A stretch of 64,000 nt of DNA from a virus, in the IMG/VR virus record IMGVR_UViG_3300046513_000221, positions 1-64,000 of that record, one strand, 5' to 3'. Below are positions 24,325 through 63,705 of the stretch, in pieces; within the stretch, counting starts at the first letter, position 1, and each line of letters opens with the position of its first letter. The translations under genes were made by a program, and so were the position numbers. The notes under the pieces are model-generated. The model saw only the letters and a program-made list of their open reading frames with translations. It made no database searches and was not told the DNA's origin.

Positions 24325-24388
24325 GATGCTCCCATAGGTACTAAATTCTTGAGTTTTCGAGTCTCCACTCGGATTTCTCTTCATTTTT

Positions 24389-24397
24389 ATAATATAT
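24389..24397 (-). promoter_or_regulatory. AT-rich promoter-like motif (ATATATTATA on minus strand)
   Basis: Intergenic; 65 nt upstream of the 23767..24324 start. Confidence 0.35.
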
Positions 24398-24430
24398 TCC
24401 CGGATGCCACGTCAATTTCGTTTTTGACGT

Positions 24431-30917: not shown

Positions 30918-30953
30918 TAGTTTCCCTTTAGATTCTAGTCACAGTCAAACCTA

Positions 30954-30962
30954 TAATATATC
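30954..30962 (-). promoter_or_regulatory. AT-rich promoter-like motif (ATATATTATAGG on minus strand)
   Basis: Intergenic; 37 nt upstream of the 30672..30917 start. Confidence 0.35.
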
Positions 30963-35427: not shown

Positions 35428-36873
35428 TTAGTGTACGTTCTTCGGATCTTCGAAGAACATGTCCTTCACGTTCGTGCAGAACGGCACGATGGTACCGCTC
35501 AAGCCCGGATCACCGGACGAGGACGCATTCAGCGACAGGTTGCCGAGGAACGACTCGTGGATGCTGCGGTACTTGACCAGAACGTTACCACCGTTCGCAC
35601 CGAGGGACTGAGCGCCACGCGCCGACCACTTCAGTGCCACGTTGAACAGGTTCAGCGTGTTGGTGATGTTGGAGTAGCGCAGCAGCTCGTTGGTGATCAG
35701 GCGCTTGACGAGGAACATCGCGCCGATGTTGCTGAACACCGTCTCCAGACGCTTCATGTCGATGTTGCGGCTGTTCAGGATGCGGACGGTGATCTCGGAC
35801 CACTTGATCAGCAGCGGGAAGATCAGGTACTCGTACAGGCGCAGACGGCGCGTGTAGATGTTGAGGCTGTCCAGCTGGTGCAGCTCTTCGTAGTTCCATG
35901 CCATGTAGCGCACGACATCGAAGGTGCTCTGCTTACCGTCATCCGGCAGCTCGCGCAGGTTCTTCTTGGTACGCTCGTCGAGGATGCGCTCCAGCGACAT
36001 GATGGCCTTGTCTGCCTTCTCCAGCTTGGAGGTCGGCGAGGTCAGGATCTTACGACGCCAGAAGTCGCCGGACGCCAGACTAGTGGACTTCTTCACGTTC
36101 TCCAGCACATGATGCAGGGAAATCACGAGGTTGCGGAAGTTGGCATCGGACTGCAGACGCTCCTTGTTGACCACCATCGTCATGGTCTTGCTCGGATGGA
36201 AGTACTCGAAGTCGCTGTCCACCTCGACCTCTTGATCATTGAAGACGAACACGTCCTCATCCAGCTTCATCAGACGCATGGTCTCCTCGAAGCCGTACTT
36301 GATGAAGAAGTAGATGAAGAAGTTCTTGAATGCGTTGATGTTGTTCGAGCGGGTCTTGAAGAAGTCCAGCAGGAACACCTTACCGTTGTAGTCGGTGCCG
36401 CCGTTCGACTGGATGGTCGTCTGCTTGTGGCGAACGCCCAACGGCATCAGCAGCGTCTTCAGGAAGATACCATTGCGCACGTTGTAGAAGTTCTTGTCTG
36501 CAACCTGCAGGATCGCGTAGTAGCGGTTCCCGTTCAGGATGAAGAAGTAGTCGTCGACCAGCTTCGGGATGAACAGGTGCAGAGCGCGCTCCTTCTTCTC
36601 ACCCTCCCACTCGATCATGAACCGGGCCTCGATCAGGTCCAGACGCGATTCCTCGATCGAGATGGTCTGCTTCGAGATGTACTTGTGGCACTCCTCCTCG
36701 TTGATGCGCTTCATGTCGAGGAACTTGATGCCGGGGATCGAGTTCAGCGTCGAGAACAGGTCGCGGAAGTAGCTGTCGATGTCCTCGCGTTGACGGATGT
36801 AGATCAGGTCTTCATTGAACTTCTCCGGGTTGTCTGCCTGGAACTTCTTGTAGAATTGGGTTTGGATGTCCAT
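35428..36873 (-). CDS. candidate multisubunit RNA polymerase beta-subunit N-terminal fragment (481 aa)
   Basis: Real start MDIQTQFYKK with AAGGAG RBS. C-terminal LGANGG ... RSIHESFLGNLSLNASSSGDPGLSGTIVP resembles the beta fork-loop region (LGPGGL ... [24 protein letters not shown]). Lies a few genes from the beta'-like gene. The product call is tentative. Confidence 0.6.
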   Translation of the reverse strand: MDIQTQFYKKFQADNPEKFNEDLIYIRQREDIDSYFRDLFSTLNSIPGIKFLDMKRINEEECHKYISKQTISIEESRLDLIEARFMIEWEGEKKERALHLFIPKLVDDYFFILNGNRYYAILQVADKNFYNVRNGIFLKTLLMPLGVRHKQTTIQSNGGTDYNGKVFLLDFFKTRSNNINAFKNFFIYFFIKYGFEETMRLMKLDEDVFVFNDQEVEVDSDFEYFHPSKTMTMVVNKERLQSDANFRNLVISLHHVLENVKKSTSLASGDFWRRKILTSPTSKLEKADKAIMSLERILDERTKKNLRELPDDGKQSTFDVVRYMAWNYEELHQLDSLNIYTRRLRLYEYLIFPLLIKWSEITVRILNSRNIDMKRLETVFSNIGAMFLVKRLITNELLRYSNITNTLNLFNVALKWSARGAQSLGANGGNVLVKYRSIHESFLGNLSLNASSSGDPGLSGTIVPFCTNVKDMFFEDPKNVH

Positions 36874-36881
36874 GCTGCTCC

Positions 36882-37139
36882 TTAGCGAACGTTCTTGTAG
36901 GCTTCCAGAACTGCCGCCTTGACGACCTCCGGTGCTGCGGTGAAGTAGTCGGCAACCATCGCCACGGTCCACTTGGAGCCGTTGCGCGGTGCCGAGCCGG
37001 TCATGTAGAATGCCAGCTTGTCGGAGATGACGCGCCAATGACGTTCAGTGATCTCTTCCATCTTGAGGCCGAGAAACTCAGCGACTTCCTCTGCGTGGTA
37101 GATGTAGCTGTGGGTTACCAGCCCGGATACGATAGCCAT
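36882..37139 (-). CDS. hypothetical protein (85 aa)
   Basis: ATG verified. Confidence 0.45.
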   Translation of the reverse strand: MAIVSGLVTHSYIYHAEEVAEFLGLKMEEITERHWRVISDKLAFYMTGSAPRNGSKWTVAMVADYFTAAPEVVKAAVLEAYKNVR

Positions 37140-38634: not shown

Positions 38635-38708
38635 TCTCAGTTCGGCATCTATTATAACGCCATTTTCGGTTTTACGCTATGCAACTTAACAACAGTCGAT
38701 ATCACTGC

Positions 38709-38718
38709 TATTATATAT
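38709..38718 (-). promoter_or_regulatory. AT-rich promoter-like motif (ATATATAATA on minus strand)
   Basis: Intergenic between the beta' gene stop and 38580. Confidence 0.3.
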
Positions 38719-38739
38719 GTGCAAAACGTCGCACGAAAA

Positions 38740-40308
38740 TTACTCCTTGGTGAGCATGTACAGTGCCAGACCACCCTCACGATGGATGCCCCGGATGAAG
38801 TTACCCTGAGTATCCATATAGTTCATCGGCGAGAACATGATCTTTTCCGCCTCGATGTTGGCCTCTGCGGAGAACAGACCTGCCACACGCATCGTGTCGC
38901 CGTCGTAGTCACCACCGAGACCCTTCATGTATGCGAAGTTCGGTACGTAGGTGTCGATCCACTGGATCTTGTCTTCGAGGATCGTGTTCTTACCATCGGT
39001 CGGGAAGAACGGGTAGTCCTTGAAGTTCTTGTTACCGGTTCCGCCCTCGCTCACCAGACCGGACACGTCCACGGTTTTCTCCGTGGTCAGGATCTTCACC
39101 CGGCAGGTGATGACGGACTCGGGACCAGTCACCGGGAAGCGGGTGGCGATTACGTGCTTGTCGCGGCACACGTCGATCGCGGCGTCGTACAGGAAGTCGG
39201 TCAGTGTGTAGTGGCGATCCGGCAGACCCTTGATACCCTCGATGTTTTTCATGATCGGAGTGCGATCACCGACGCCGTTCAGACGAAAGGCCTGAGTACG
39301 GATCCGCTTAGTCTTGTCCTTGATGTAGCCGTTCACGATCTTCTGGATGTTCGCGGACGAGATGGTCTCGTACACGGTGTCCTGTAGGTCGTAGCGTTCG
39401 TCACCCTCCAGTACGATCGATGCCGAGTGCTCGTACTCATGGAAGAAGTCTTCGATCCACTTGATGATGAACGGATAGAACAGGTTCAGTGCCAGATGGA
39501 GCGGTACCCCGAAGTAGTTGTATGGGATCTGCTGCGTCTCGGGGGTGTTGCTCTTGATCTGCGAGCAGGAGAGCACGCCGATGGTCGAGTAGTCGATGGA
39601 CTTACCCATGATGGCCTGACGGATCACGCCCTTCTTACCGGCGATCTTCTGAGTCAGTTCCTTATGGATCTCGACCAGCAGGTTCTGCACGGAGGATTGG
39701 GTGATGTAGCTGTTCTCGAAGATGATGGCCTCCGAGGTGGCGGCATTCAGGAGCTTGATGTACAGGGCGTTGACACCCTCCACAGTGATCTTCTTGGAGC
39801 CGGACTGACTGGAGAAGTTCACATCGCGGTAGTAGGCAGGGATGACCAGCCACTTGTCGAGGAAGATCTCATCGAACTTGAGCATGTTGAGCAGCTCGTC
39901 CTTCTTCTCGCGGCTAGCGTTGATAGTACCTTCCTTCACCCACTTGATCTTCTTCCAGTTCTTGACGAAGAAGTCGATGCCGCACTCACCCTGCTCCGGG
40001 TCGTCGGACACAACGAGGTTGCCGAACTGGTCGAGCCGGACGTACTTGTCACCAGCCAGAACGAGCGGCAGCGCACGAAACATCTGGAAGATGGTGATGT
40101 ACACCATCGGGTGAAAGAACTTACGACGGAGATCGATAAAGCCGAAGTTGTTCTTACGCTCTTCCGAGCCGAACTTACCGAAGATCTTTGTCGAGAACAG
40201 ACCGTCCTCGCTTGGGAGTCCATCCGATCCGAGATAGAAGCGGTTGTTTACTTGCTCGCAGCCGTTCACACGGATGAACTCGTTCATGTTGAATGCGTCT
40301 AATTGCAT
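38740..40308 (-). CDS. multisubunit RNA polymerase beta'-like subunit, N-terminal fragment (522 aa)
   Basis: KGLGGDYDGDTMRVAG is the universal NADFDGD Mg-binding motif, sitting near the C-terminus as in split beta' N-fragments; RFPVTGPESV region; AAGGGAAAG RBS. Confidence 0.7.
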   Translation of the reverse strand: MQLDAFNMNEFIRVNGCEQVNNRFYLGSDGLPSEDGLFSTKIFGKFGSEERKNNFGFIDLRRKFFHPMVYITIFQMFRALPLVLAGDKYVRLDQFGNLVVSDDPEQGECGIDFFVKNWKKIKWVKEGTINASREKKDELLNMLKFDEIFLDKWLVIPAYYRDVNFSSQSGSKKITVEGVNALYIKLLNAATSEAIIFENSYITQSSVQNLLVEIHKELTQKIAGKKGVIRQAIMGKSIDYSTIGVLSCSQIKSNTPETQQIPYNYFGVPLHLALNLFYPFIIKWIEDFFHEYEHSASIVLEGDERYDLQDTVYETISSANIQKIVNGYIKDKTKRIRTQAFRLNGVGDRTPIMKNIEGIKGLPDRHYTLTDFLYDAAIDVCRDKHVIATRFPVTGPESVITCRVKILTTEKTVDVSGLVSEGGTGNKNFKDYPFFPTDGKNTILEDKIQWIDTYVPNFAYMKGLGGDYDGDTMRVAGLFSAEANIEAEKIMFSPMNYMDTQGNFIRGIHREGGLALYMLTKE

Positions 40309-42301: not shown

Positions 42302-43048
42302 TTACTCCTGGAACTCGTCGGACAGGTTGGTCTTCTTGGCACCGGCCTTGCCGCTCGGCTTGCCGGACGACTCTTCGCCGCCTTCTTCGCTATCTTCTTC
42401 GATGGCGCGACGGGCAGGCTTCTTGCCAGCGGACTGGTAGCTACTACCGCCGCCACCATTGCGCTTGGCACCGTGTGCCGAAACGCCGAATGCGTTGTCG
42501 ATCACTGCGTTGAAGAACTCGACCAGCAGCAGCATGTCGATTTCCTGCGTGTCTTCGATCACATCGTTGTCGGCGGTCTTGAACTCGGAGGTGGCGCGCT
42601 GCATGATGTGGAACATCTTCTGCTCGCCGTCGTCCTTGGTCTGGGTCAGCTTCAGGACGAACTCGCCGAAGAAGTTGCCGCCCAGCTTGATCGCGTTCGG
42701 CTTGAAGATCGTGAAGGTACGCGGCGACTTCTCGTTGCCGAACTTCATGGTGAAGCTCTTCAGCGCGCCGTCTTCGTCGGCCAGCAGATCCTGCACGCCC
42801 TTGCGGCCCAGCAGGGCAGCTTGCGCGTCGATCATGAAGTTCATCTTCTCGTCGTAGTCGTAGACGTTGTCGCCCTTCTTCGGTTCCTTGTTCAGGAACT
42901 CGTCGAAGATCGGTGCCAGCGAGATCAGCGAGCCGCCGTTGACCAGCGTGAAGTTCATTGCCGAGAATTGGCGCTCGTAGGAGTTCACGTCACTCTTCGA
43001 GTAGACGGATTGGCGGCGTTGGTTTGGTTGTTGACGGTCGTCGGACAT
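42302..43048 (-). CDS. hypothetical protein with Gly/Ser/Glu-rich C-terminal tail (248 aa)
   Basis: Start MSDDRQQPNQ at 43046-43048. Confidence 0.55.
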   Translation of the reverse strand: MSDDRQQPNQRRQSVYSKSDVNSYERQFSAMNFTLVNGGSLISLAPIFDEFLNKEPKKGDNVYDYDEKMNFMIDAQAALLGRKGVQDLLADEDGALKSFTMKFGNEKSPRTFTIFKPNAIKLGGNFFGEFVLKLTQTKDDGEQKMFHIMQRATSEFKTADNDVIEDTQEIDMLLLVEFFNAVIDNAFGVSAHGAKRNGGGGSSYQSAGKKPARRAIEEDSEEGGEESSGKPSGKAGAKKTNLSDEFQE

Positions 43049-43117
43049 GGTATTTCCTATTGAATTGATTTGGGATTTATGGAACTTGATCAATTTAGGG
43101 TGATCAACCCTTTACCT

Positions 43118-43867: not shown

Positions 43868-43919
43868 GTCAAATCTCTATGTGAGTAATAGATTGTTGGA
43901 TCGTCTCACTCACACCAAA

Positions 43920-43928
43920 ATAATATAT
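43920..43928 (-). promoter_or_regulatory. AT-rich promoter-like motif (ATATATTATTTT on minus strand)
   Basis: 53 nt upstream of the 43118..43867 start. Confidence 0.35.
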
Positions 43929-43978
43929 CCGAGATCTTTCATTCAGAAATTGCTCCTGTTCATCCGATGCCCTAGAGA

Positions 43979-45849: not shown

Positions 45850-47535
45850 CTATGCCAGCAGCGCCTCCAGATCGACGATGACGTCGTTGACGTCAGGCAG
45901 ACCGAGGAGTTCCTTGCCGATTCGGATGATATCGTTCTCGGCGATGAGGCCGGGGATGATATCGTCGAGTTCCGGACGCTTGTCGCACATGATCTTGCCG
46001 ATCATGGTGTCCGCATCGATGTTACCTGCCAGAATGATCGATGGATACATGGACGATAAGTCCTCGTCCACAATATTCTCGAAGATGCGATTGGAGCGCT
46101 TGCCATCCTTGCTGATGACGATGCCGACGGCGTCCATCATCTCAGGCAGAGCCACGAATGCACCCTTGAACTTCTTCTTCTCTTCCTCTTCCTTCAGACG
46201 GTTGTGGTTGTTGGACAGGAGGAAACCCTCCTTCTCCAGAACCATCGCCGCGAAGTTACGGATCGAGGTGGTCTTGGTCATGACCTTGTTGAAGCGGGTC
46301 GCGGTCATCAGGCCCATGTTGTACAGCAGGTCGATGTCGTTGTTCTGCTCTTCGAGCTGATACAGACGGAACGAGTCATACATCGAGTACTTGAGGAAGC
46401 TCTCGTAGTTGATGTACATCGCGTCCGTGATCTCGCCCTCGTACTCATACTTACCTTCGATCCCCTCGTCGATCAGGATCGCATCCAGAGCGTACGATTC
46501 GCGCTTGCCCATCGTCGCCCGGATCTTGGCGAACTGCTCCTGCATCTCGACGAACTGCGAGTAACCTGCAACCTCCAGCTTGGTGTTCCGCTTGGTGAAG
46601 TCGGTTGCGAAGGAATCGTTCTCGATCCATGTGGACTTGTACGGCAGCTCCTTTGGACACATCACCTCTTCAGGCTTTAGCTTCAGTCGGAGCATACGGT
46701 TCTTCATGGTTACCAAGTCGAACCCGGCGTTCCAAGCACCCATGAAGTCGGGTTTGTCACGCTTCACGATCTTGAAGAAGTCCTTCAGCAGCTCCGCCTC
46801 ATCGTCGTAGATGTGTACCTCGATCGCACGCACCTTGGCGTAATCGATCTTGGAGTTTGGATCCTTCTCGTTCATCTCGTCGATGACCTGAGAGATCCAC
46901 TCATCGCCGTATTCTGCGAATGCTTCAAGGAAGTCCATCTGAGATTGGTTGTTCTCGTTCTTCAGGATGAACGAGTGGATGGTCATCGTCGGCTGGTGGA
47001 TGTACGAGATCATCGACACCGGACATGGAGCCAGCTCTGGTTCAGGAAACTCCCTGTACTCCGACACATCGACCTCAATATCGTAGAACGCCTTGGTGAT
47101 CGGCAGGACTGCGATCTGGTGACGGTTGCGGTCGAGCCACTCACGCGTCTTGTAGTCTGCCAGATCCATGTCCGTCAGGTGCAGGTTGTTGTCCTTGTGG
47201 AGGTTACGGAGTTCCTTCCACTTACCGTTGTTCTTACAAGCCTTGTAGAAGTCCATCTGGTCGGAGGCCTTAGCCATCTCATACTGCAGATTGTCGAACT
47301 TCACGGTTATCGGCTCGACCTTGTCGAACTCGATGTAATTCGCTGCCTTCTTCAGCCTGAACTCGTCCTTGGTAATGTAGAACGTGTAGGACGGATCCTC
47401 CTCGATCTCGAATTGCTTCTTGATCGTACCATCCGGTTGAAGTACGCTCTCCACATAGATGATCTTGGAGTGCTGGCGATTGTTGTCGTCACGATCGCGA
47501 ACGTGCAAGACGTTCGATAGCTGTTTTCCGCTCAT
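45850..47535 (-). CDS. family-B DNA polymerase, N-terminal part (3'-5' exonuclease domain + polymerase motif A, 561 aa)
   Basis: Exo I YDIEVD; Exo II WNAGFDLVTM; Exo III YSMYDSFRLYQL; motif A DLSSMYPSIILAGN. The protein ends about 70 aa after motif A. Confidence 0.75.
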   Translation of the reverse strand: MSGKQLSNVLHVRDRDDNNRQHSKIIYVESVLQPDGTIKKQFEIEEDPSYTFYITKDEFRLKKAANYIEFDKVEPITVKFDNLQYEMAKASDQMDFYKACKNNGKWKELRNLHKDNNLHLTDMDLADYKTREWLDRNRHQIAVLPITKAFYDIEVDVSEYREFPEPELAPCPVSMISYIHQPTMTIHSFILKNENNQSQMDFLEAFAEYGDEWISQVIDEMNEKDPNSKIDYAKVRAIEVHIYDDEAELLKDFFKIVKRDKPDFMGAWNAGFDLVTMKNRMLRLKLKPEEVMCPKELPYKSTWIENDSFATDFTKRNTKLEVAGYSQFVEMQEQFAKIRATMGKRESYALDAILIDEGIEGKYEYEGEITDAMYINYESFLKYSMYDSFRLYQLEEQNNDIDLLYNMGLMTATRFNKVMTKTTSIRNFAAMVLEKEGFLLSNNHNRLKEEEEKKKFKGAFVALPEMMDAVGIVISKDGKRSNRIFENIVDEDLSSMYPSIILAGNIDADTMIGKIMCDKRPELDDIIPGLIAENDIIRIGKELLGLPDVNDVIVDLEALLA

Positions 47536-47586
47536 TGGTTTCCTATAAGTACATTTTAATCATTACTCTTATCACTAAAAACATGT

Positions 47587-47614
47587 ACCGCTTCCGGAGC
47601 GGTCCCGTTTTTTT
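47587..47614. other. hairpin ACCGCT-N5-AGCGGT followed by T7, in the 5' region of the DNA polymerase N-fragment gene
   Basis: 6-bp stem plus CCCGTTTTTTT on the plus strand; T5 on the minus strand after the same stem. Confidence 0.35.
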
Positions 47615-47727
47615 ATTTATTATTTATAATTATTTAAATTCGCGACACGTACGCGCGCGCGAGAAAGTCATTCGAGCTCCACCAGCTGACCGGAAGTCCA
47701 CTGAAAATGTGATGCTTAACAACCCAA

Positions 47728-47736
47728 TAATATATA
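47728..47736. promoter_or_regulatory. AT-rich promoter-like motif in divergent region (AATAATATATA)
   Basis: Between the 47535 (-) start and the 47777 (+) start; the following AT-rich block 47610-47660 also looks promoter-like. Confidence 0.3.
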
Positions 47737-47776
47737 CTCGAAACACCGGTAAGAAAACGGTGCATCTGGAGCAATC

Positions 47777-48625
47777 ATGGCAGAAACAGGAAATCAAGTC
47801 GCCACCACAGGTCAGTCCTTCAGTAATACTGAGCTGACCCTGCGCGACATCATAGCACAGAATACATTCTCGGACAACGAGGCGATGTTGAAGCAGGAGC
47901 TGACAGAGGCCAATGAGCTCTTCACTCTTGTCAAGGGACTGCTGATGGACGAGGTAGGCGAGATCGCCAAACCGGCCACCCCTCAGCGCATGGGTACGGT
48001 GCAGCAGACCAAGCGTCGCAACATGATGTTCATCTCAAGTCAGACGACGAACCTGATCAGCATCAAGAACCTTAAGATGTCGCTGATCACGAAGCTCAGC
48101 GGCCTCCAGCAGGACCAGCTGGATCGTAACATCAGGGCGCTCTCCCAGATCGCCAAAGAGAACAAGATCGAGGATTCCGAGAGCAACCCAACGGCGGTTC
48201 TGGACTTCATCCTCAACAACCTCAACATCACGATCCCAATCGCCCCGGCTCTCCGGGCGCAGATGGGACTGCGGCCAGCCCACGACATCTCCGCCGAAGT
48301 CGATCTGGACTCGATCATCGATGCCGAGGAGGCAAGGGAGAACGAGTTCAAGCAGGAAAAGACCTCGTTCACCGCACCGCCTCCGAAGAAGCTGGTGAAG
48401 CCGAAGGTGGAACCCAAGGTCGAGGAACCGCTCTACAAACTGGCGTACGACGACGCTGGGAACACCCTCGTCTACAACGTGGAAGAGGACAAGATGGTCG
48501 TGGTCGATGGTGGCTACGAGATCATCAAGGAGCTGCAGTCTGACGAATACGAGGTTGACGTCCTCCCGGACGGCTCGTACTACGACAAGCACACCAACAC
48601 ACTAATCGAACTCATAGGAGAATAA
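47777..48625 (+). CDS. hypothetical protein, first gene of plus-strand late block (282 aa)
   Basis: GGAG RBS + ATG; GC3-rich codon usage. Confidence 0.55.
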   Translation: MAETGNQVATTGQSFSNTELTLRDIIAQNTFSDNEAMLKQELTEANELFTLVKGLLMDEVGEIAKPATPQRMGTVQQTKRRNMMFISSQTTNLISIKNLKMSLITKLSGLQQDQLDRNIRALSQIAKENKIEDSESNPTAVLDFILNNLNITIPIAPALRAQMGLRPAHDISAEVDLDSIIDAEEARENEFKQEKTSFTAPPPKKLVKPKVEPKVEEPLYKLAYDDAGNTLVYNVEEDKMVVVDGGYEIIKELQSDEYEVDVLPDGSYYDKHTNTLIELIGE

Positions 48626-48627
48626 CG

Positions 48628-49176
48628 ATGGCTACCGATTACTTCATGCCGAACTACAACCAGCTGCTCAAGGACGAGGGAGAGTTCAGCAACAACAAGA
48701 ACGATTCCGGCGGCGCTACCCGCTGGGGTGTCACCGAGAAGGTGGCACGCGCCCACGGCTACACTGGCCGCATGGAAGACCTCCCGCTGGAGACAGCGAA
48801 GGTCATCTACAAGGAACAGTACTGGGACATCAACAAGCTGGACGACATCGCCGCCCTCTCCCCGGAGATCGCGTCGAAGATCTTCAATGCCGGTGTAAAC
48901 TGCGGTGTGACGCGCCCAATCAAGTGGCTGCAACGCGCTCTGAACGTCCTGAACGGACGCGGCGAATTCTTTTCCGACATCTCCGCTGACGGCGTGTCCG
49001 GCAAGATGACCGTGTTCGCACTGTCCAGCTTCCTCAAGAAGCGCGGCACTATGGGCGTAACCGTCCTGATGCGTCTGCTGAATGACCAGCAAGGCGTCTA
49101 CTACGTCGAGTGCGCAGAGGGTAACGACAAGAACGAGGACTTCGTCTTCGGCTGGGTCGCTAACCGCGTCGCGTAA
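48628..49176 (+). CDS. GH108-family lysozyme-like protein (182 aa)
   Basis: DEGEFSNNKNDSGGATRWGVTEKVARAHGY matches the GH108 N-terminal signature (EGGY.NDP.D.GG.T..GIT); AGGAGA RBS. Confidence 0.65.
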   Translation: MATDYFMPNYNQLLKDEGEFSNNKNDSGGATRWGVTEKVARAHGYTGRMEDLPLETAKVIYKEQYWDINKLDDIAALSPEIASKIFNAGVNCGVTRPIKWLQRALNVLNGRGEFFSDISADGVSGKMTVFALSSFLKKRGTMGVTVLMRLLNDQQGVYYVECAEGNDKNEDFVFGWVANRVA

Positions 49177-49186
49177 GGGATAGGAC

Positions 49187-49840
49187 ATGGCACTTTTCCT
49201 GAATGAAAGCACTCTCCTTCAGTACAAACTGATGGACGAGAAGCTGCTCTCCGAGGCCGTTACCGACCCGGAAGCCGGGGCTGATCCGAAGGATTCCAAG
49301 GATCCTAAAGAGAGCTCCGATGACAAGACCGCGACCGATGTGTCTGCCGATGCGAAGGACGCCGCTGCGGTCCCTACCGACTCTGGCGATGATGCACCAC
49401 CAGCCGGTGATCCACCTGCGGATGATTCCGATAGTGGTGATGACGAAGATGACGGCGGTGACGATCCTGCCACCCCACCCTCCTCCTTCCAGACCCGGAA
49501 AACGATCGGTGGCGTGGAAGTGGAAGACACTGCCCTCAACCGTCGCTACCTCTTCAACCAGTTCCAAGAGATCATTAAGATCCACGAGAACTTGCTGGAG
49601 TTCGTCACCAACATGACGGTGAAATTCCCAAATGACAAAAAGCGACTCCAGCTGCTCGGACAGATCAAAGAGAAATCCGAGTTCGATCTGCGCATGCTTA
49701 ACAACGCTCTAGACGATCAGATCTTTGTCGGCATGGACATCACCTCGCTGTTCGCGCTGTACAAGATCTACTTTAACGACGCCTCAAGCGCCCTTAGAGT
49801 GATCAAACTTGTTCTTAACTACCAACCGATAAAATCGTAG
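49187..49840 (+). CDS. acidic low-complexity protein, scaffold-like (217 aa)
   Basis: Asp/Glu/Pro/Ser-rich N-half immediately upstream of the capsid-like gene. Confidence 0.5.
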   Translation: MALFLNESTLLQYKLMDEKLLSEAVTDPEAGADPKDSKDPKESSDDKTATDVSADAKDAAAVPTDSGDDAPPAGDPPADDSDSGDDEDDGGDDPATPPSSFQTRKTIGGVEVEDTALNRRYLFNQFQEIIKIHENLLEFVTNMTVKFPNDKKRLQLLGQIKEKSEFDLRMLNNALDDQIFVGMDITSLFALYKIYFNDASSALRVIKLVLNYQPIKS

Positions 49841-49979
49841 GTTCTTCGGCGGCGGTCTCCAAAAAATGCTACCGCCGAACTAAATTGACCCTAACATTCA
49901 GATAGAATGCAGCCTTCAGAGGGCTGTGTAAGTTGATTTAGGATAACCTAAACCTCTTTTACTTTTAAGGAAGAATCAC

Positions 49980-51563
49980 ATGTCTATCAGCTACGATACC
50001 GTCCACCAAAGCACCGTGGGCAGCAAAGTCTCCGCCATTCTGGAAAAACTGCCAGCGATCAACGAATCGTTCGCAGCAGAAGGCCTGAACGTCCTGAACG
50101 AAGGTTTCTCGGAAGTTGCTGCTAACAAGCACTACTACGAAGACTACGTCACCAAGCTGAGCGAAGGTCTGGACCCGGTAGCTGCCGCCCAGTTCCAATC
50201 GCTGGCCGACACCACCCGTACCCAGATCCTGCAAGAAAGCTCGATCTCGGGCATCAACCCGATCACCGCACTGGCGCTGCCGATGCTGCGCGTGGCATGG
50301 CCAAAAACCTCGATCCGCGAAGGCTTCCCGACCGAACCGGTCATGCAGCCGAAGTTCAAGGTGACCTGGCTGAAGCCGTACTTCATCGACGCTTCGACCA
50401 ACGAAAAGATCTTCATGCCTGCTGGCATCAGCAAGCGTAAAGACCTGTTCAAGCTGAAAATGCTGCAGGAAACCCCAATTCTGGTCGGCGCTGCCGGTCT
50501 GAACGGCTACGACCTGCTGACCCCTGTCGGCGCGAACGCATCGCTGGGCGACGAAATCGATCCGAACTTCTCGATCAGCGGCGTGACCTTCAAGGCACTG
50601 GACGCAACCGGCGCTAACCCGGTCAACGTCACCGTGGACGTCGAGTTCGAACTGGACACCAACATCGACGTGATCGAAGGCACCGCCTCCGGCAAGCACA
50701 CCGATGGTACCGACAACAAAGTTCGCGTGTTCGCGAAACTGAACCGTCGTGACGGCCAGATGGACGTCGTCGGTCTGGGCCGCGAAGTCGTCAGCGTAAC
50801 CGTCAAGGGCTACCTGTCGTCCGAAGCCAACAACCGCGCTACCCAAGTCGGTTTCGACGTTACGTCGGACGAGACCGTCATCGGTACCGGCCAACCGATC
50901 GAATCGCCGATCAACATCCAGCAGATGACCGACACGATGGCGATGTACAACATCGACTCGACCGTCAAGACGCTGGAAATCATGTCCACCGCGCTGGCAC
51001 AATCGACCGATCTGGAAGGCATCGACTTCCTGGAGCGTCGCTTCATGCTGGGCCTGAAACTGCAGACCGAGTTCGACGTGAACCCACCTGCCAACTTCCA
51101 GCTGGGCAACACCGCATGGCGCGAAGAGATCAAGATCAAGATCGACAATCTCGTGACCCGTCTGATGCAGTCCACCAACATCACCGCTGGCTCGGTCGTG
51201 ATCTTCGGCAACCCGCTGGACACGCAGATCCTGTCGAACGTGAAGTGGATGTACTCCGGCGAAGACCAGCCTAACGGCGTCAACATCGAGTACCGCGTCG
51301 GTAACTACACCTCCGGCGTGACGAACTACAAGGTTCTGTCGTCGTTCAACTTCGGTCAAGGCGAGCTGTACGTCGCGTTCCTGCCATCCACCCCGGATCA
51401 GGCGACGCTGAAGTACTACCCGTACTCGTTCAACGTTGTGCGCGGCACCGCCTCGCCTAACCGCACGTTCAACCCTGCTGTTCAGATGATCAAACGCCAC
51501 GTCTTCAAGGAGTACTCCTCGATGGTCGGCAAGATCAAGATCAAGAACAACAACGGCCTGTAA
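49980..51563 (+). CDS. putative major capsid protein (527 aa)
   Basis: Extreme codon bias (CTG, CCG, GGC, ATC ... dominate). AAGGAAG RBS; strong terminator immediately downstream; position in the structural module. Fold not verified. Confidence 0.65.
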   Translation: MSISYDTVHQSTVGSKVSAILEKLPAINESFAAEGLNVLNEGFSEVAANKHYYEDYVTKLSEGLDPVAAAQFQSLADTTRTQILQESSISGINPITALALPMLRVAWPKTSIREGFPTEPVMQPKFKVTWLKPYFIDASTNEKIFMPAGISKRKDLFKLKMLQETPILVGAAGLNGYDLLTPVGANASLGDEIDPNFSISGVTFKALDATGANPVNVTVDVEFELDTNIDVIEGTASGKHTDGTDNKVRVFAKLNRRDGQMDVVGLGREVVSVTVKGYLSSEANNRATQVGFDVTSDETVIGTGQPIESPINIQQMTDTMAMYNIDSTVKTLEIMSTALAQSTDLEGIDFLERRFMLGLKLQTEFDVNPPANFQLGNTAWREEIKIKIDNLVTRLMQSTNITAGSVVIFGNPLDTQILSNVKWMYSGEDQPNGVNIEYRVGNYTSGVTNYKVLSSFNFGQGELYVAFLPSTPDQATLKYYPYSFNVVRGTASPNRTFNPAVQMIKRHVFKEYSSMVGKIKIKNNNGL

Positions 51564-51579
51564 CCTGCGTTGATAAACT

Positions 51580-51614
51580 CCCGCTACCTCAAAAGGGTAG
51601 CGGGGTTTTTCTTT
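51580..51614 (+). terminator. terminator CCCGCTACC-N6-GGTAGCGGG + TTTTTCTTT
   Basis: 9-bp stem plus T-run after the capsid-like gene. Confidence 0.75.
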
Positions 51615-51664
51615 GCCTCGTCTCGAATCGGCTAACTAAGTATTAGTGGTAACGACTAGGAGGC

Positions 51665-52555
51665 ATGACCATGAACCACCCAAGCAATTTTACTCAAGAG
51701 CTGCACGCATATGCCGAACAGGCAGGTTGCGGTCTCACCACGCTGAGTTCCGATGTGATCGATGGCTACGTCATCGACATCGCCGACCCGGCCAGCCGCG
51801 TGGCTATCAACCTCGTACCCCTGAACGGGATCGAGAGTCCAGACAACAGGTTGCTCGAAATGTCCATGAAGGCACATGAGAACAACTTCACACTCTATCA
51901 CGTCTTCGAATCGGACTGGATGCATCGTCGCTCAGTCCTGATGAAGAAGATCGACTCCCTTCTCGGGATTGGCAGCGAAGAGAAAACGATCTACCGCTCG
52001 AAAAAGTGTGAGATCCGGCGCATCGATGAGAAGACCTTCCGGGAATTCTTCCGCACCAATTCGGTCGCGGTAACATCGAAAGCCGATAAGTACTTCGGAA
52101 TGTATCCGATCGACAAGCAAGACACAACACTGGTCGCGGCGATCGCCGTTAAGAACCTGAAGAAGGATCCGAACGGCTCCATCATCACGTCCTATGTGAC
52201 CAACCTCGACCACAAGGTCGTTGGTGCTTTTGGCAAGTTCGTGGGATACCTGAAGGGCGGCAAGAACTACTGTCTGTACCACGCGGATCTCCGCTGGTTG
52301 GACCTGCGTTCGACCTTCCTCAACAAGGCTTCCATGAAGTTCGTCAAGGTGTCGGAGCCACTGCGCTTCGCCTACACCCAGAGCATCAAGAAGCTCCACC
52401 TGCTGAACGGGATGACCCGCGAGAGTCTTTCGTCCCGCGTATCCTTGTCGAAGCCGTACGATACACGGCTCTCGATTGAGGATAATCTGGCAGCGAATGA
52501 CTTCAGCTTCATCCGCGATGCTGGCTGTATGATCTTCTCCTCGAAGAAGAACTGA
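51665..52555 (+). CDS. hypothetical protein in its own terminator-flanked unit (296 aa)
   Basis: AGGAGG RBS; terminators on both sides; less biased codon usage than the capsid gene. Confidence 0.55.
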   Translation: MTMNHPSNFTQELHAYAEQAGCGLTTLSSDVIDGYVIDIADPASRVAINLVPLNGIESPDNRLLEMSMKAHENNFTLYHVFESDWMHRRSVLMKKIDSLLGIGSEEKTIYRSKKCEIRRIDEKTFREFFRTNSVAVTSKADKYFGMYPIDKQDTTLVAAIAVKNLKKDPNGSIITSYVTNLDHKVVGAFGKFVGYLKGGKNYCLYHADLRWLDLRSTFLNKASMKFVKVSEPLRFAYTQSIKKLHLLNGMTRESLSSRVSLSKPYDTRLSIEDNLAANDFSFIRDAGCMIFSSKKN

Positions 52556-52560
52556 AAAAC

Positions 52561-52598
52561 CCGCTAGACCCCGAGAGGTCTAGCGGTTTTCATTTTAC
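52561..52598. terminator. bidirectional terminator CCGCTAGACC-N6-GGTCTAGCGG + TTTTCATTTT
   Basis: 10-bp stem; A5 upstream and T-run downstream. Confidence 0.7.
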
Positions 52599-53011
52599 TT
52601 CTTGGCCATCGGCTGCGGTACCGCACCCTGCATGAACTGGCGTGCGCGAGCAACGGCCTTCGAGCCGTACTTGCGATGGATCAGTTCGCGCAGCTGCAGA
52701 CGGATGCCGTTGTACTTGGCGTACTTGGCATACAGGGCGTCGCCCTTGGCTTTCGCCAGCAGCAGAGCCTGACGGTGGGCCAGGTTGTTGGTCTTGGCTT
52801 GACGGTTCAGGTGGACGATGATGTTCTGCTCGGACAGAGCTTTGATCACGACTTCCTCGTCCAGTGCTTGGAAAGCACCGGCCATCTTGCGCATCGCCAG
52901 CTCTTCGTCCAGCGGCAGTTCCACTTCAGGGGCAGCGCCCGGAGCGCCGGTTTGGACTGCGGTCTCAGCCAGCAGGTCTTGCAACAGTTTCGTCGACATA
53001 TGTGACTCCAT
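52595..53011 (-). CDS. hypothetical protein (138 aa)
   Basis: ATG at 53009-53011; Ala/Lys-rich. Confidence 0.5.
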   Translation of the reverse strand: MESHMSTKLLQDLLAETAVQTGAPGAAPEVELPLDEELAMRKMAGAFQALDEEVVIKALSEQNIIVHLNRQAKTNNLAHRQALLLAKAKGDALYAKYAKYNGIRLQLRELIHRKYGSKAVARARQFMQGAVPQPMAKK

Positions 53012-53145
53012 AAGTTGGGGTGTTAAGCGTCACCGTCCCACGTCTGGGAGACGTAAATCCCTTCAGATGAAATGAGACAGTTACTTTCTAATTAGATGTT
53101 AGGCTTGCGAAAAAATAAAATAGCCAATCACAAGAACGGATACGT

Positions 53146-53157
53146 GTATATATAATA
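53146..53157 (+). promoter_or_regulatory. AT-rich promoter-like motif (TATATATAATAT) upstream of the DNA polymerase C-fragment gene
   Basis: 55 nt upstream of the 53212 ATG in a divergent intergenic region. Confidence 0.3.
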
Positions 53158-53211
53158 TGGATGTATGAGTTAGAAGCATCCTCGAATGAATTTTGAAAGG
53201 AAGGTTAGTGT

Positions 53212-55176
53212 ATGAGCGGAGTCTACCATGACAAATATTTCGAGACGCTGGAACGGCGTCTCAGCCTCGTCTGCGGCGAACTCAGCGACGAGGATCGTGC
53301 AAAGCTCCGGGAGCGCATCTGGGCGATGCGCAAGCCAATCGAACTGACGATCGAAAACAACTACAAAGACACATGGATCGATACCAACTCGGAAGAGATC
53401 CTCAACATCATCTACGACAAGAAGCCGAACATCTCCGGCTATGGCGTACTGTTCAACCACAAGCCGAACATCCCCGGTCGCGTTCTGGACTTCCTGCTGA
53501 AGGAACGTAAGGTCAAGAAGAACAAGATGTTCGACCACCTGAACGACGACGACAAGACCATGTACAACAAGCTGGACGTGGAGCAGAAGGTGCTCAAGGT
53601 TCTGGCGAATGCGTACTACGGTGCGTTCGGTCAGCGTTCGTTCCACTTCTTCAATCCGTTCCTTGGTCCATCAGTGACCTACACGGGTCAGCACATCATT
53701 CTGAGCGCGATTCTCGGCTTCGAATCGTTCATGTCGGACAACTTCGCGTTCTTCACGTTCGACCAGCTGCTGAAGTACGTGGACAACATCACTCAGGAGT
53801 TCGACGCCGAGCTGACGGCTCTGGACGAGAAGGTCACCGTCGAGCAGGTGTACGCTCGTCTGTCCGGCAAGTGCAACTTCGAGCTGACCGAGGAGCAGCA
53901 GATGGTGCTGGGCGGCGTCCTCGATGACATGCCTTACACCCAGCTGGAGCGTCTGTTCCTCAAGAACAACCTGTTCTTCCTGCTGCGTAACTCCACGGAG
54001 GTGCGTGACATCTTCGGTGAGTGCTTCAGTTCGGAATTCCTCGATCCAGACCATCCTCCGAAGGAGATCGCTGAGAACGTCGAGGCACTGAACGAGTACT
54101 TCAGCTACTTCGTCTCCTATCCGTACCAGTGGGACGACAAGTACGAGACTGCGCAGAATATCAAACGCAAAACCGTGCTGATCTCCGACACGGACTCCAC
54201 ATTCCTCAATATGGATCCTGCCGTCAAGTGGTACGAGGAAACGTTTGGTGTCAAGCTTGATAAAGTGGGCAAGATCAACGTCTGCAACATCATGGTATAC
54301 AACGTTACGAAGTTCATCGAGAAGGTGTTCTACCAGCTTACGACGAACCTGAACGTGAAGGAGAACATGCGTTCGAAGATCAATATGAAATCCGAGTTCA
54401 ACTTCTCCCGGATCATCTTGACTAAGAACAAGAAGCAGTATGCAGGTCAGATCGTTCTACAAGAAGGCAAGCTGCTCGGTAAGCCCAAGTTCGCGGTCGT
54501 CGGCCTGTCAATCAAGAAGGTCGGTACTCCTAAGATCGCTCGCAAGCGGTTCAATGACATTCTCGAAAAGGACATGTTGTTGGCCGACGTCATCGATCCG
54601 CTGGTACCGTTCATGAAGTTCATGGAGTTCGAGCGCGACATCAACAACTCGCTCCGGGCCGGTGAGTCGAGCTTCCTGAAACCGGCGCGCTTCACCGCTG
54701 AACGCGCCTACAAGAAGCCATTCACTCAGCAGACCGTTCGCGGCGTACGCCTCTGGAATGCTATCTTCCCCAACAGGAAGATCCCTAACTTCACCTCCGT
54801 CAATATGCTGAAGCTGCGTAAGTACTCGCTGCCGAAGTTCGAAGTGGACAAGGATGGCGAACCGGTAGAGAACGTCAACAAGGAAGTCGACATTCTGGAA
54901 TTCATGGAGGAGATTGCTAAGCTGAATCTCGCCGAGAATATTCTGGAGGGCATCGCCGAGTTCATCCAGACCCCGGAGATCGGCAACTACGGCATCGACG
55001 TGATCGCCATTCCGAAGGACATCGACCAGTTCCCGGAGGAGCTGGTTCCTCTGGCCGACATCAGTTCCATCATCAACGACAACATGAAGAATGGTAACAT
55101 CCTTCTGGAGTCCATTGGGTTCAAGGTAATCAAGAGCCTGAAGTACGATACGGTGAGTAACATCATCGAGATCTAA
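53212..55176 (+). CDS. family-B DNA polymerase, C-terminal part (motifs B and C, thumb; 654 aa)
   Basis: Motif B KVLANAYYGAFG (KxxxNSxYG); motif C LISDTDSTF (DTDS); GAAAGGAAGG RBS. Confidence 0.75.
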   Translation: MSGVYHDKYFETLERRLSLVCGELSDEDRAKLRERIWAMRKPIELTIENNYKDTWIDTNSEEILNIIYDKKPNISGYGVLFNHKPNIPGRVLDFLLKERKVKKNKMFDHLNDDDKTMYNKLDVEQKVLKVLANAYYGAFGQRSFHFFNPFLGPSVTYTGQHIILSAILGFESFMSDNFAFFTFDQLLKYVDNITQEFDAELTALDEKVTVEQVYARLSGKCNFELTEEQQMVLGGVLDDMPYTQLERLFLKNNLFFLLRNSTEVRDIFGECFSSEFLDPDHPPKEIAENVEALNEYFSYFVSYPYQWDDKYETAQNIKRKTVLISDTDSTFLNMDPAVKWYEETFGVKLDKVGKINVCNIMVYNVTKFIEKVFYQLTTNLNVKENMRSKINMKSEFNFSRIILTKNKKQYAGQIVLQEGKLLGKPKFAVVGLSIKKVGTPKIARKRFNDILEKDMLLADVIDPLVPFMKFMEFERDINNSLRAGESSFLKPARFTAERAYKKPFTQQTVRGVRLWNAIFPNRKIPNFTSVNMLKLRKYSLPKFEVDKDGEPVENVNKEVDILEFMEEIAKLNLAENILEGIAEFIQTPEIGNYGIDVIAIPKDIDQFPEELVPLADISSIINDNMKNGNILLESIGFKVIKSLKYDTVSNIIEI

Positions 55177-55181: not shown

Positions 55182-55220
55182 AGGGAGGGGCTTCGGCCTC
55201 TCCCTTTCTTTTTTTTTTTA
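55182..55220 (+). terminator. terminator AGGGAGGGGC-UUCG-GCCTCTCCCT + T15
   Basis: 10-bp stem, UUCG tetraloop, very long T-run. Confidence 0.8.
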
Positions 55221-61917: not shown

Positions 61918-63705
61918 TTAGCGGTTGATGATGAAGTCGGCGAAGATCCGCTCGATCAGACCGTTGAAGGTCAGCTCAACCTGCACACGCACGATCTTTT
62001 GCTGCTTATCGTAGTCGGATGCGTAAACGGTCGCCTTGATGGTCGAGCAAGCACGGTTGCTCACCCACTTCTTCAGGTAACTGTTCAGGTTGTAGGACAT
62101 CGCCTCGTGGGTGATGTCATCGTTGAACTCGTCGCGGTATTCGTCGACGAGTTGCTCGACGTCACGCTTGATACGGAACAGCGCACGAACGTTGTTCAGG
62201 TTCGACAGGGCCGAGTTGACGGTCTGCGAGGTCAGCTGGGTACCGAGATTGACGCGTTTAGGGTCTTTCTCGATGTAGTTGATCTGCTTCTTGTACAGGG
62301 TCTCTTTCCATGCCTCGTTCGGGAAGAAGTTGATGGCTTCGTAGCCCGAGATCACGCCGCGACGTGGACCTGCGAAGGACCAGTGTACGCCGAACTTGTC
62401 GTCGTGCGGGGCGATCTTCTTCGCGAGGAAGTAAGGCGTGGTGACCTTGACGTTCTGGCCGGTGTACTCGTCGTAGACCACGAAGTCCTGTGCGAAGATC
62501 GCGGTGGCGAACGAGGACATACCGATCGAGTTGGTGCGGAAGTCCACGGTCTGCTGCTCATTGGCTTGGAAGCCGCAGTCCAGCAGTGCCACGCAGTCGC
62601 CACGGATGTCCGTAGCCATCTGCGACATGGCGTTCTTCACGGCGGCGCTGTTGTTGCCGTCCAGCATCAGGTCGAACAGGTATTGCTTCTTGTCGGTCGC
62701 GTTGGAGTCCAGCTGGCCGGTGTAGGCTTTGATCAGCAGGGAGTCTTCCGAGTTGCCACCGGTCCAGGTACCTTCCGAGCCGCCCGAGATGTGATTCACG
62801 GTCTTCAGGTCAGCGGCGGTGTCGTCGGTGACTTGGTTATCGGCCAGACCAGCGGTCAGCGGAGTCGCGAACTTGACAGCTTGGTGGATACCTTGTGCGA
62901 CGGACACGCCGTTACGCTCGGCACCGAAGAAGATGTCCAGATGCAGCGGGTTCACAGTATCCGTAGGATTGATGAACTCGCGGATGGTATCGATCAGATC
63001 CTTGCGGTCGAGGACGCGGAAGGTAGTCGAGTACTTGTTGACCACGTTGGCCCAGTACATGGATTCGCGGTTGCGGTCCTTGGCGGTAGGCTCGAACGAA
63101 ACGGTGTATGGACCATCGATGATGGTGTCCACGCCGACCGTGTTCTTCGCGGCGATCTCGAAGGTGTACGTACGGAAGTCGTAGGTACCGTCCAGCGAGT
63201 CCAGCAGCGAGATGCGGAAGCCCAGATCTTCGTAGGCTTTGCCGCGACCGACAGGCATCAGGACGCCCAGCGGGTAGGACACGAAGGTGGCATCGGTCAC
63301 CGGGTCAGCGCCCAGCAGGGTCTGCATCGCGGCGACGGAGGTCGCGCCCGGTACAGTCGTCAGCGTTGGCTTGACGATGTTGGTCAGGCCATCCTGACCG
63401 CAAGCGACGCTCAGCATCGCGTTGGCGTACAGGCCGTCTTCCGGCAGAATGCGGATGAAGTAGGCTTCGCCGCCAGCTTTCAGATGCTCGAACACGTTGT
63501 AGAGCGTCTGGCCGGTTTCCGACATATCGGGTTCACCGAAGTAGAACTTCGCCTCGCCGACGGAGGTCAGGCGCACCAGTTTGTTGTCTGGGCCTTTGGT
63601 TGCTTTACCGCATGCAAACAGGACGGTCGAGCCCTCAGCCGTCTGGAAGACGAAGGAGTTGTCGATGATCCTGGAATGCACTGAAGGGTGGAGATATTCA
63701 GGCAT
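61918..63705 (-). CDS. putative contractile tail sheath protein (595 aa)
   Basis: Size, AAGGAAAG RBS, highly biased codons, followed by a tube-sized gene. Sheath fold not verified. Confidence 0.65.
   Translation of the reverse strand: MPEYLHPSVHSRIIDNSFVFQTAEGSTVLFACGKATKGPDNKLVRLTSVGEAKFYFGEPDMSETGQTLYNVFEHLKAGGEAYFIRILPEDGLYANAMLSVACGQDGLTNIVKPTLTTVPGATSVAAMQTLLGADPVTDATFVSYPLGVLMPVGRGKAYEDLGFRISLLDSLDGTYDFRTYTFEIAAKNTVGVDTIIDGPYTVSFEPTAKDRNRESMYWANVVNKYSTTFRVLDRKDLIDTIREFINPTDTVNPLHLDIFFGAERNGVSVAQGIHQAVKFATPLTAGLADNQVTDDTAADLKTVNHISGGSEGTWTGGNSEDSLLIKAYTGQLDSNATDKKQYLFDLMLDGNNSAAVKNAMSQMATDIRGDCVALLDCGFQANEQQTVDFRTNSIGMSSFATAIFAQDFVVYDEYTGQNVKVTTPYFLAKKIAPHDDKFGVHWSFAGPRRGVISGYEAINFFPNEAWKETLYKKQINYIEKDPKRVNLGTQLTSQTVNSALSNLNNVRALFRIKRDVEQLVDEYRDEFNDDITHEAMSYNLNSYLKKWVSNRACSTIKATVYASDYDKQQKIVRVQVELTFNGLIERIFADFIINR

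Follow-up and report, generated by a model that had tools for sequence, protein, structure and literature searches.

The question raised by this locus is whether two genes that lie apart on opposite strands encode a single DNA polymerase. The window, that is, the whole stretch of DNA that was analyzed, comprises 64,000 nucleotides (positions 1 to 64,000 of the IMG/VR virus record IMGVR_UViG_3300046513_000221). An earlier note on this DNA had described a family-B DNA polymerase (PolB) split into two genes around a capsid gene module. The genes are called here polN (45850..47535, minus strand) and polC (53212..55176, plus strand), and their products are 561 and 654 amino acids (aa) long. They were indeed found on opposite strands, pointing apart and separated by 5,676 bp, with the major head protein gene (49980..51563) between them. 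Our answer, held at a probability of about 85%, is that the two open reading frames (ORFs) encode two subunits of one replicative PolB. Enzymes of this type occur in jumbo phages with multisubunit RNA polymerase genes, namely the AR9/PBS1/phiR1-37 lineage and the phiKZ-like phages.

polN was a long uninterrupted ORF that overlapped the next gene by 1 base at 45850. Its product consisted of an N-terminal domain, a 3'-5' exonuclease domain, the palm strand with motif A, and a C-terminal tail. It matched PF03104 (the PolB exonuclease domain; E 1.1e-10) and phrog_3011 ('DNA polymerase'; E 3.2e-71), and it aligned with residues 80-433 of RB69 gp43. All three exonuclease motifs of family B were within polN. 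Exo I (DxE) was represented by FYDIEVD (D152 and E154; aa 150-156, 47068..47088), as located by the alignment to the RB69 exonuclease, and its D-I-E was conserved in at least 95% of 40 N-type family members. Exo II (Nx2-3F/YD) was GAWNAGFDL (aa 266-274, 46714..46740) and Exo III (Yx3D) was YSMYDSFRL (aa 383-391, 46363..46389), both identified by the RB69 alignment and conservation in the family.

Motif A, DEDLSSMYPSII (aa 490-501, 46033..46068; minus strand, like the exonuclease motifs), aligned residue by residue with 'sfDLTSLYPSII' of RB69, such that D492 was paired with D411, and it was conserved in the family. Beyond motif A there was a tail of 60 aa. This conformed to the N-type subunits, which are about 550-650 aa long and end shortly after motif A, and polN could be aligned end to end with phiR1-37 g170, AR9 gp132 and BONAISHI ORF96c.

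polC was also a long uninterrupted ORF. Its product consisted of a head, the fingers with motif B, a helical insert, the palm with motif C, a KKxY motif and the thumb. It matched PF00136 (aa 87-166; E 4.3e-11), PF20286 (divDNApol, 'divergent family B polymerase'; E 1e-42) and phrog_2927 (E 1.2e-92), and was 39% identical to phiR1-37 g167 plus g164 and 35% identical to its AR9 counterpart. The PolBs of Thermococcus and Sulfolobus aligned with it starting at the first fingers helix. Motif B, KVLANAYYGAFG (aa 129-140, 53596..53631), aligned with motif B of these two enzymes, with the K, N and G conserved. Motif C, LISDTDSTF (D326 and D328; aa 323-331, 54178..54204), contained a DTDS that was conserved in at least 95% of 59 homologues. 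The KKxY motif, NKKQYAG (aa 406-412, 54427..54447), was assigned by alignment and family conservation. All of these were on the plus strand.

Motifs B and C were 198 aa apart in polC; the spacing is about 60 aa in RB69. Between them was a poorly conserved insert of about 145 aa (aa 176-320, 53737..54171, plus strand), which was all-helical in the structural model described below. The long helical insert of the divergent PolB clade has been defined previously (PMC7824862), and the insert of polC is typical of the 'divergent PolB' from RNA-polymerase-encoding jumbo phages. With its match to PF20286 and the long helical insert before motif C, polC had the characters of a C-type subunit. The full set of family-B motifs (A, DxxSLYPS; B, Kx3NSxYG; C, DTDS; and KKxY) was obtained only when polN and polC were combined.

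In Thermococcus numbering, the alignment of polN ended at residue 424 and that of polC began at residue 445. These limits defined a single break, located after the motif A strand and before the fingers; the halves did not overlap, and every motif was accounted for. The earlier note had pointed to a similar 'IIPG...K..KKxKM' segment near the break in both halves. This similarity was not borne out. When the last 70 aa of polN were aligned locally with the first 125 aa of polC, the best score was 25, which was reached by 42% of shuffles. The 'IIPG' in polN was not conserved in the family, and the IPG..LL.ER...KK.M of polC was the ordinary N-terminal fingers helix of family-B polymerases.

The motif content suggested how the work would be divided. 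polN would provide the N-terminal domain, the proofreading exonuclease and the palm strand with the motif A aspartate D492. polC would provide the fingers (with K129 of motif B), the motif C aspartates D326 and D328, KKxY and the thumb. With the catalytic residues divided between polN and polC in this manner, the catalytic centre would exist only in the heterodimer. Conservation of all these residues extended across the 40 N-type and the 59 C-type homologues, including those with only 27-30% identity.

The two proteins might instead act separately, with polN as a free-standing proofreading exonuclease and polC as a polymerase that is complete alone or with another partner. A polymerase of the phiKZ type has been described without a fused exonuclease, the latter being encoded elsewhere (PMC3201878, PMC7824862), and a weak motif-A-like DQALYLSAM was spotted by eye at the N terminus of PhiPA3 gp047. 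polC, on the other hand, lacked motif A, and there was no DxxSLYPS-like element in its first 86 residues. Motif A was conserved in polN, and it was also present in the N-type subunit of the phiKZ-like phage BONAISHI. Furthermore, a natural fusion of the two halves (P0192; see below) kept the canonical order of elements. We consider separate action improbable.

To model the one-enzyme arrangement, polN (residues 20-561) was joined directly to polC, and the structure of this artificial fusion was predicted by AlphaFold2 with an unpaired alignment of 90 N- or C-type homologues. The mean predicted local distance difference test score (pLDDT) was 90.9 and the predicted template modelling score (pTM) was 0.85; only the junction residues 540-544 were below pLDDT 50. 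The predicted fusion contained the N-terminal domain, exonuclease, palm, fingers and thumb of the family-B fold. Its best PDB matches by Foldseek were to full-length RB69 gp43, with TM-scores of 0.65-0.70 normalised to the target and E values of about 1e-28.

A natural counterpart of this fusion was found in a JGI metagenome contig (L013, 2404-6243). P0192 was a single ORF of 1,279 aa, in the order polN-like part, tail, head and polC-like part, with the tail and head contiguous between the other two. Its residues 67-560 matched polN 44-512 with 34% identity, and its residues 674-1278 matched polC 49-653 with 29% identity. In a rough neighbour-joining tree, calculated without support values, P0192 was nested among the split forms and BONAISHI was basal. 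This nesting suggests that P0192 would be a secondary re-fusion.

The sequences flanking the break had features of their own. The polN tail (aa 513-561, 45853..45999, minus strand), which contained an IG..LLGLP element, had no counterpart in the RB69 or Thermococcus alignments. Its 'LP' was conserved in at least 80% of the 40 N-type members, and the tail carried the only conserved residues found past motif A. The polC head (aa 1-89, 53212..53478, plus strand), upstream of the fingers helix, fell outside the alignments to solved PolBs. In the model of the fusion, the tail was predicted to form three short helices, and the head to form two helices, a beta-hairpin and a further helix, with pLDDT of about 80-95. 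Motif A was separated from the fingers helix by about 146 aa here (60 aa of polN tail and 86 aa of polC head) and by about 157 aa in P0192. The separation was about 35 aa in Thermococcus, and it is about 55 aa in RB69. The longer distance reflects a clade insertion of roughly 100 aa, with the break inside it.

From the model and the conserved residues of the tail, we propose the tail as a docking element and the head as its partner: the two would fold together into a docking interface that holds the subunits. In this proposal the break spares the canonical PolB elements, while the tail and head of the insertion form a dedicated interlocking mini-domain, which would assemble a catalytic centre shared by two chains and was occasionally re-fused, as in P0192. 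The proposal is a tentative one, and we rate its chances as slightly below even.

The tail and head also bear on a different route to a single enzyme, in which protein trans-splicing (a split intein) or RNA trans-splicing would unite the halves after expression. Split genes in phage replication modules are often tied to introns, inteins and homing endonucleases, and in phiR1-37 a homing endonuclease gene adjoins g170 and the C half is interrupted again. No intein or Hint domain was found in either half of the present polymerase, however, and no Rfam family, group I and II introns included, reached threshold anywhere in the window; neither Hint halves nor flanking intron RNA elements were therefore at hand, in agreement with the earlier statement that this was no intron or intein insertion. 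A separate start, promoter motif and terminator were present for each gene. In the fused P0192, the tail of about 60 aa and the head of about 86 aa were kept as ordinary protein sequence. Since they are retained there, they are not intein halves. Splicing of either kind appears very unlikely.

The two-gene state was widespread among the relatives. In each isolate genome listed, each half matched exactly one place, and the two places were separate genes. In phiR1-37 the N half (g170, plus strand) and the C half (g167 and g164, minus strand) were divergent and 1.9 kb apart. In AR9/PBS1 both halves were on the minus strand, 15 kb apart; in BpSp they were on the same strand, 9 kb apart; and in the Staphylococcus phages they were on the same strand, 16-21 kb apart, with the C half upstream. 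Existing database annotations already name them 'DNA polymerase exonuclease subunit' and 'catalytic subunit'. The metagenomic homologues were of single-half size as well (42 of polN, all 435-650 aa; 71 of polC, all at most 711 aa). A HMMER search of 1.84 billion representatives gave 237 matches at E <= 1e-30; 149 of the best 150 were at most 736 aa long, P0192 being the only single-chain case among them.

The split also extended beyond the closest relatives. ORF96c (576 aa) of BONAISHI, a phiKZ-like Vibrio phage, aligned with polN 237-547, and the alignment covered motif A (DIDITSGYPT) and the tail (IGNKVLGLP versus IGKELLGLP in polN). This indicated the same break point in at least one phiKZ-like phage. 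A two-gene polymerase is thus general in the AR9/phiR1-37 lineage and occurs in phiKZ-like phages too, and the split itself has already been described.

Some variants of the C half were observed. In phiR1-37 a second cut, located between motif C and KKxY, divides it into g167 and g164, which are separated by about 330 bp (L001:5850-8173). Several C-type metagenomic proteins were short (405-474 aa: P0054, P0060, P0087, P0089, P0091, P0093, P0096, P0097, P0099 and P0101), and these may be three-piece variants like that of phiR1-37. Some Staphylococcus phages carried an HNH endonuclease gene within the N-half region.

Decay of one or both ORFs after a recent rearrangement or an assembly error, with replication performed by another enzyme, is highly implausible, even though only part of the genome is visible and rearrangements are frequent in this phage group (PMC5105663): both ORFs were full length against more than 100 homologues and kept every catalytic motif, the same divergent layout occurred in the isolate phiR1-37 and in independent metagenome contigs from different samples, and near-identical proteins were present in other datasets (95% identical to polN; 100% identical to part of polC).

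The expression of the two genes was considered from their promoter motifs. The early promoter consensus for the virion RNA polymerase of AR9 is AAATATATATTAT-N6-G (PMC5312081). The whole window was scanned with the AR9-derived TATATATWAT-N6-G, allowing at most 1 mismatch. Nine copies were found against 0.10 expected, each co-oriented with the surrounding genes. The only two perfect copies were those upstream of polN and polC: TATATATTAT-N6-G (47720..47736, minus strand) was 185 nt upstream of polN, and TATATATAAT-N6-G (53147..53163, plus strand) was 49 nt upstream of polC. The seven copies with one mismatch (4445-4461, 16383-16399, 20297-20313, 24382-24398, 30946-30962, 38703-38719 and 43913-43929) were all on the minus strand, matching the direction of the leftward gene array.

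In L009 and L004 the early motif also preceded both units, that of polN and that of polC; it was present as well ahead of g170 in phiR1-37, ahead of the polN unit in L002 and ahead of the polC unit in L003 (L numbers denote related loci). In AR9 an early promoter before g152 has been mapped by primer extension, and gp152 and gp132 are expressed from early times and continuously (PMC5312081). In the phage studied here, the early motif on each gene would be read by the injected virion RNA polymerase. With a copy of its own before each gene, both halves would be made together from separate transcription units.

Both strands of the window were also scanned for the AR9 late consensus of the non-virion RNA polymerase, AACA-N6-TA[AG]. 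This motif was rare. It occurred 11 times on both strands, at 40407, 47718, 49700, 49893 and 55748 on the plus strand and at 63788, 61057, 53100, 43130, 40349 and 23148 on the minus strand. Eight of the 11 were 34-89 nt upstream of a co-oriented gene start; by our estimate, sites of this kind make up only about 5% of positions. The motif was strongly position-biased. The genes concerned were ORF 47777, the capsid gene, ORF 55782, the tail sheath gene, ORF 52595, ORF 40448, ORF 42302..43093 and the RNA polymerase beta-like ORF. An extended core, 'TTAACA', was tried and was not enriched in the window. A scan for sigma-70 promoters gave fewer matches than shuffles.

Three of the late promoter-like motifs were near the polymerase genes. 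AACA-N6-TAA at 47718..47730 (plus strand) preceded ORF 47777 by 59 nt and was arranged back to back with the early motif of polN. AACATTCAGATAG (49893..49905, plus strand) was 87 nt upstream of the capsid gene, and AACATCTAATTAG (53088..53100, minus strand) was 89 nt upstream of ORF 52595. With these positions, an early and a late promoter motif diverge from a common junction at each polymerase half. The cassette of a leftward virion protein gene with its late motif and a rightward polC with its early motif is common to the window and AR9, where the early promoter is annotated.

Hairpins resembling terminators were found around these units. That with a T run directly after polC (55182..55205, plus strand) suggested that polC is a one-gene unit. 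Another intrinsic terminator-like hairpin with a T run (51579..51605, plus strand) followed the capsid gene, and a bidirectional one (52561..52586) was between the convergent ORFs 51665 (plus strand) and 52595 (minus strand). The polN leader (47536-47720, 185 nt) contained a G+C-rich hairpin with flanking A and T runs (47587..47603), similar to a bidirectional terminator. The leader also contained a 13-codon ORF with a preceding GGTGGAG (47669-47683, minus strand). These elements could be an attenuator or functionless. As a structured RNA the leader was rejected, its folding energy being not unusual (z = -1.09).

Several points weigh against the conclusion that polN and polC are subunits of one enzyme. 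A search of the accessible literature found no biochemical or structural study of any split polymerase of the AR9 or phiKZ type, and nothing relevant on the PBS2 polymerase; for this phage's pair, physical association and activity would follow from comparison with relatives. In the structural model, the unpaired alignment and the artificial covalent link mean that the placement of the halves may reflect AlphaFold's knowledge of the PolB fold and not co-evolution. The promoter motif of polN is at some distance (185 nt) from the start codon, with the terminator-like hairpin in between. Finally, the window covers 64 kb of a genome that is probably longer than 200 kb, and another polymerase elsewhere is possible; family hidden Markov models detected no third polB in all six frames of the window, as the earlier note had required. 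That note had also held that the enzyme must assemble from two polypeptides expressed from different transcription units, and the comparative evidence supports such an assembly as probable.

The layout of the halves was then compared with that in the relatives. The earlier note had regarded the separated, inverted arrangement as unusual. In this lineage it was not: the halves were equally divergent in phiR1-37, L004, L007 and L009, and the two-gene state is the rule of the lineage. L009 (40% identity) had the phiR1-37 layout, with divergent halves 2.4 kb apart and only the homologues of g168 and g169 between them. L004 and L007 (52-58% identity) had the window layout, with the lysin and capsid genes between divergent halves. 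In L005 (52% identity) the lysin-capsid block was beside polN, and the contig ended before polC. An inversion that separated once-adjacent halves had been raised as an explanation, and the synteny in the relatives needed none; it pointed to a late-gene block located between halves that were already divergent. The most parsimonious reading would be that an old divergent pair of halves gained this block, from the endolysin to the capsid gene, in the sub-lineage of the window.

Other arrangements were seen. In L008 (ENA contig MUNK22-1...scaffold_135; 47% identical), polC and the downstream structural genes were on the polN strand, so this block is inverted relative to the window. In L002 and L003, additional genes were inserted downstream of the promoter, ahead of polN or polC. 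Among those between the early motif and polC in L003 was a gene for a nucleoside 2-deoxyribosyltransferase (L003:8241-9118; PF05014); in the window no gene was present at that place.

Six ORFs were located between polN and polC. The first gene of the rightward array (47777..48625, plus strand) was a homologue of phiR1-37 g169 (tblastn against L001, 32% over 114 aa, E 7.7e-12), and its homologue was conserved beside the polN unit in L002 and L004-L009. It was followed by an endolysin gene (48628..49176, plus strand) with GH108 and PG_binding_3 domains (PF05838, E 8.9e-21; PF09374, E 3.9e-14). The next ORF (49187..49840, plus strand) encoded an acidic protein of 217 aa. It had no family match in the Pfam and phrog profile searches and no detected homology to phiR1-37 g134; homologues in the same position, upstream of the capsid gene, were present in L002, L004 and L008. 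The major head (capsid) protein (49980..51563, plus strand, 527 aa) matched phrog_20655 (E 1.8e-164) and was 46% identical to phiR1-37 g135 and 36% identical to the AR9 major head protein.

ORF 51665 (51665..52555, plus strand, 296 aa) matched phrog_3339 (E 1.2e-16) at profile positions 251-535 of 536, that is, only the C-terminal part of a homing endonuclease. It had no Pfam match, nuclease domain included, and homology to the phiR1-37 homing endonuclease g171 was not detected. Homologues were in the same place in L003 (50% identity) and L007 (24%). The partial match and these homologues suggested that ORF 51665 may have been domesticated and may be a remnant, not a mobile gene. The last of the six, ORF 52595 (52595..53011, minus strand), encoded a virion structural protein homologous to phiR1-37 g168 (phrog_26909; tblastn against L001, E 2e-21). 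It also matched the AR9 locus L015 by tblastn (E 9e-9), and in AR9 the homologous virion protein gene adjoins the gene for the polymerase catalytic subunit, divergently.

Among the known split polymerases, that of phiR1-37, the closest isolate, was the most similar. It has the same break point and the same divergent orientation, with the early motif upstream of g170, g169 and g168 between the halves, and g163 and g162 downstream of the C half, as in the window. On the other hand, its halves are only 1.9 kb apart and its capsid gene g135 is about 25 kb away, whereas in the window the capsid gene is between the halves. The endolysin gene, the acidic ORF, the capsid gene and the homing-endonuclease-like ORF are between the g169 and g168 homologues in the window but not in phiR1-37. 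The C half is also a single ORF in the window and two genes (g167 and g164) in phiR1-37.

AR9/PBS1 and the Staphylococcus jumbo phages have the same two subunits (gp132 and gp152 in AR9) with the same break, and AR9 also has an early promoter before the C-half gene. They differ in having both halves on one strand, separated by 9-21 kb, and the C-half gene precedes the N-half gene; the identity is 32-35%. In AR9, gp152 has been described as the catalytic subunit and gp132 as an exonuclease with a partial catalytic domain (PMC5312081).

The 'divergent PolB' of phiKZ-like phages (PF20286; Kazlauskas and Venclovas 2011; Iyer et al. 2021) shares with polC the PF20286 domain and the long helical insert, but the identity is only about 25%. 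The phiKZ enzyme has been termed a 'split subunit DNA polymerase' (PMC5105663). In the published description, exonuclease and polymerase are on separate chains, and both catalytic aspartates are placed in the polymerase chain (PMC3201878); in the window and in BONAISHI, in contrast, motif A is on the N-type chain. PhiPA3 gp047 could be aligned with polC from motif C onwards, up to the C-terminal end. At its N terminus (L010:1307-3457, aa about 28-40), 'NDQALYLSAMTGD' had a faint resemblance to motif A.

The split gp43 (43A/43B) of the T4-related Aeromonas phages 25, 31, 44RR and 65 co-purifies and is active (PMC2988022). It is broken at the finger tip, and the genes are collinear and 2 bp to 3 kb apart, in association with a homing endonuclease or an untranslated spacer (PMC3061061). 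The polymerase in the window is of a different kind: the break is between motif A and the base of the fingers (424-445), and the genes are divergent and 5.7 kb apart instead of collinear adjacent cistrons. In Methanothermobacter thermautotrophicus (Kelman et al. 1999), PolB is encoded by unlinked genes 85 kb apart and is broken in the palm, at a site some 83 residues past the finger-tip site of Pfu (PMC3061061). The PolB of Rhodothermus phage RM378 is naturally split between the N-terminal and palm domains (PMC3061061). In these natural splits the genes are unlinked, and the break points differ from that in the window. The archaeal separation of 85 kb is a precedent for distant halves.

The phage itself is, apparently, an uncultured one. 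No nucleotide match to the 9.3-kb region was found by megablast among 50,697 phage records, which indicated that it is no sequenced isolate. The nearest isolates by protein were Yersinia phage phiR1-37 (43% identity for polN and 39% for polC), the Bacillus phages AR9, PBS1 and BpSp, the Staphylococcus jumbo phages S6, MarsHill and PALS_2, and Listeria phage LPJP1. All are members of the lineage of jumbo phages with genes for multisubunit RNA polymerases; AR9 and phiR1-37 are uridine-containing (PMC5312081). The context in the window was of the same type, with RNA polymerase genes, a capsid protein of the AR9/phiR1-37 type and early and late motifs of the AR9 type. The source is apparently a divergent relative of phiR1-37, to which AR9 is also related, with a high G+C content at third codon positions (GC3).

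GC3 was about 0.80 in polN and polC, and the content at second positions (GC2) was about 0.28, which is the coding signature of this genome. Over the whole window, third codon positions were about 80% G+C and second positions 27-40%, and the proteins were rich in K, N, I, E and D. This composition produced many long spurious ORFs on the opposite strand. The main strand switch was at 47.5 kb, where the AT skew also reversed its sign: to its left nearly all genes used the minus strand, and the genes between 47777 and 60878 used the plus strand. Other genes included an RNA polymerase beta-like subunit (38740..40308, minus strand; phrog_2986, E 5.7e-96), a second polymerase-like ORF (35428..37038, minus strand; phrog_2943), a virion structural protein (58416-60878, plus strand; phrog_3004), a tail sheath protein (61918-63705, minus strand; phrog_19666) and an SPFH/Band 7 protein (14145-15557, minus strand; PF01145). 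No tRNAs were found in the window.

As a known hallmark of this phage group, the split in itself matters little. What the locus adds is that phages from the AR9-like ones through a phiKZ-like one share a break point that leaves motif A on the exonuclease chain. In addition, early and late promoter motifs of the AR9 type are recognisable in a relative of phiR1-37; no late consensus had been found for phiR1-37 itself (PMC5312081). The natural single-chain version, P0192, could serve as a construct for the biochemistry of this polymerase.

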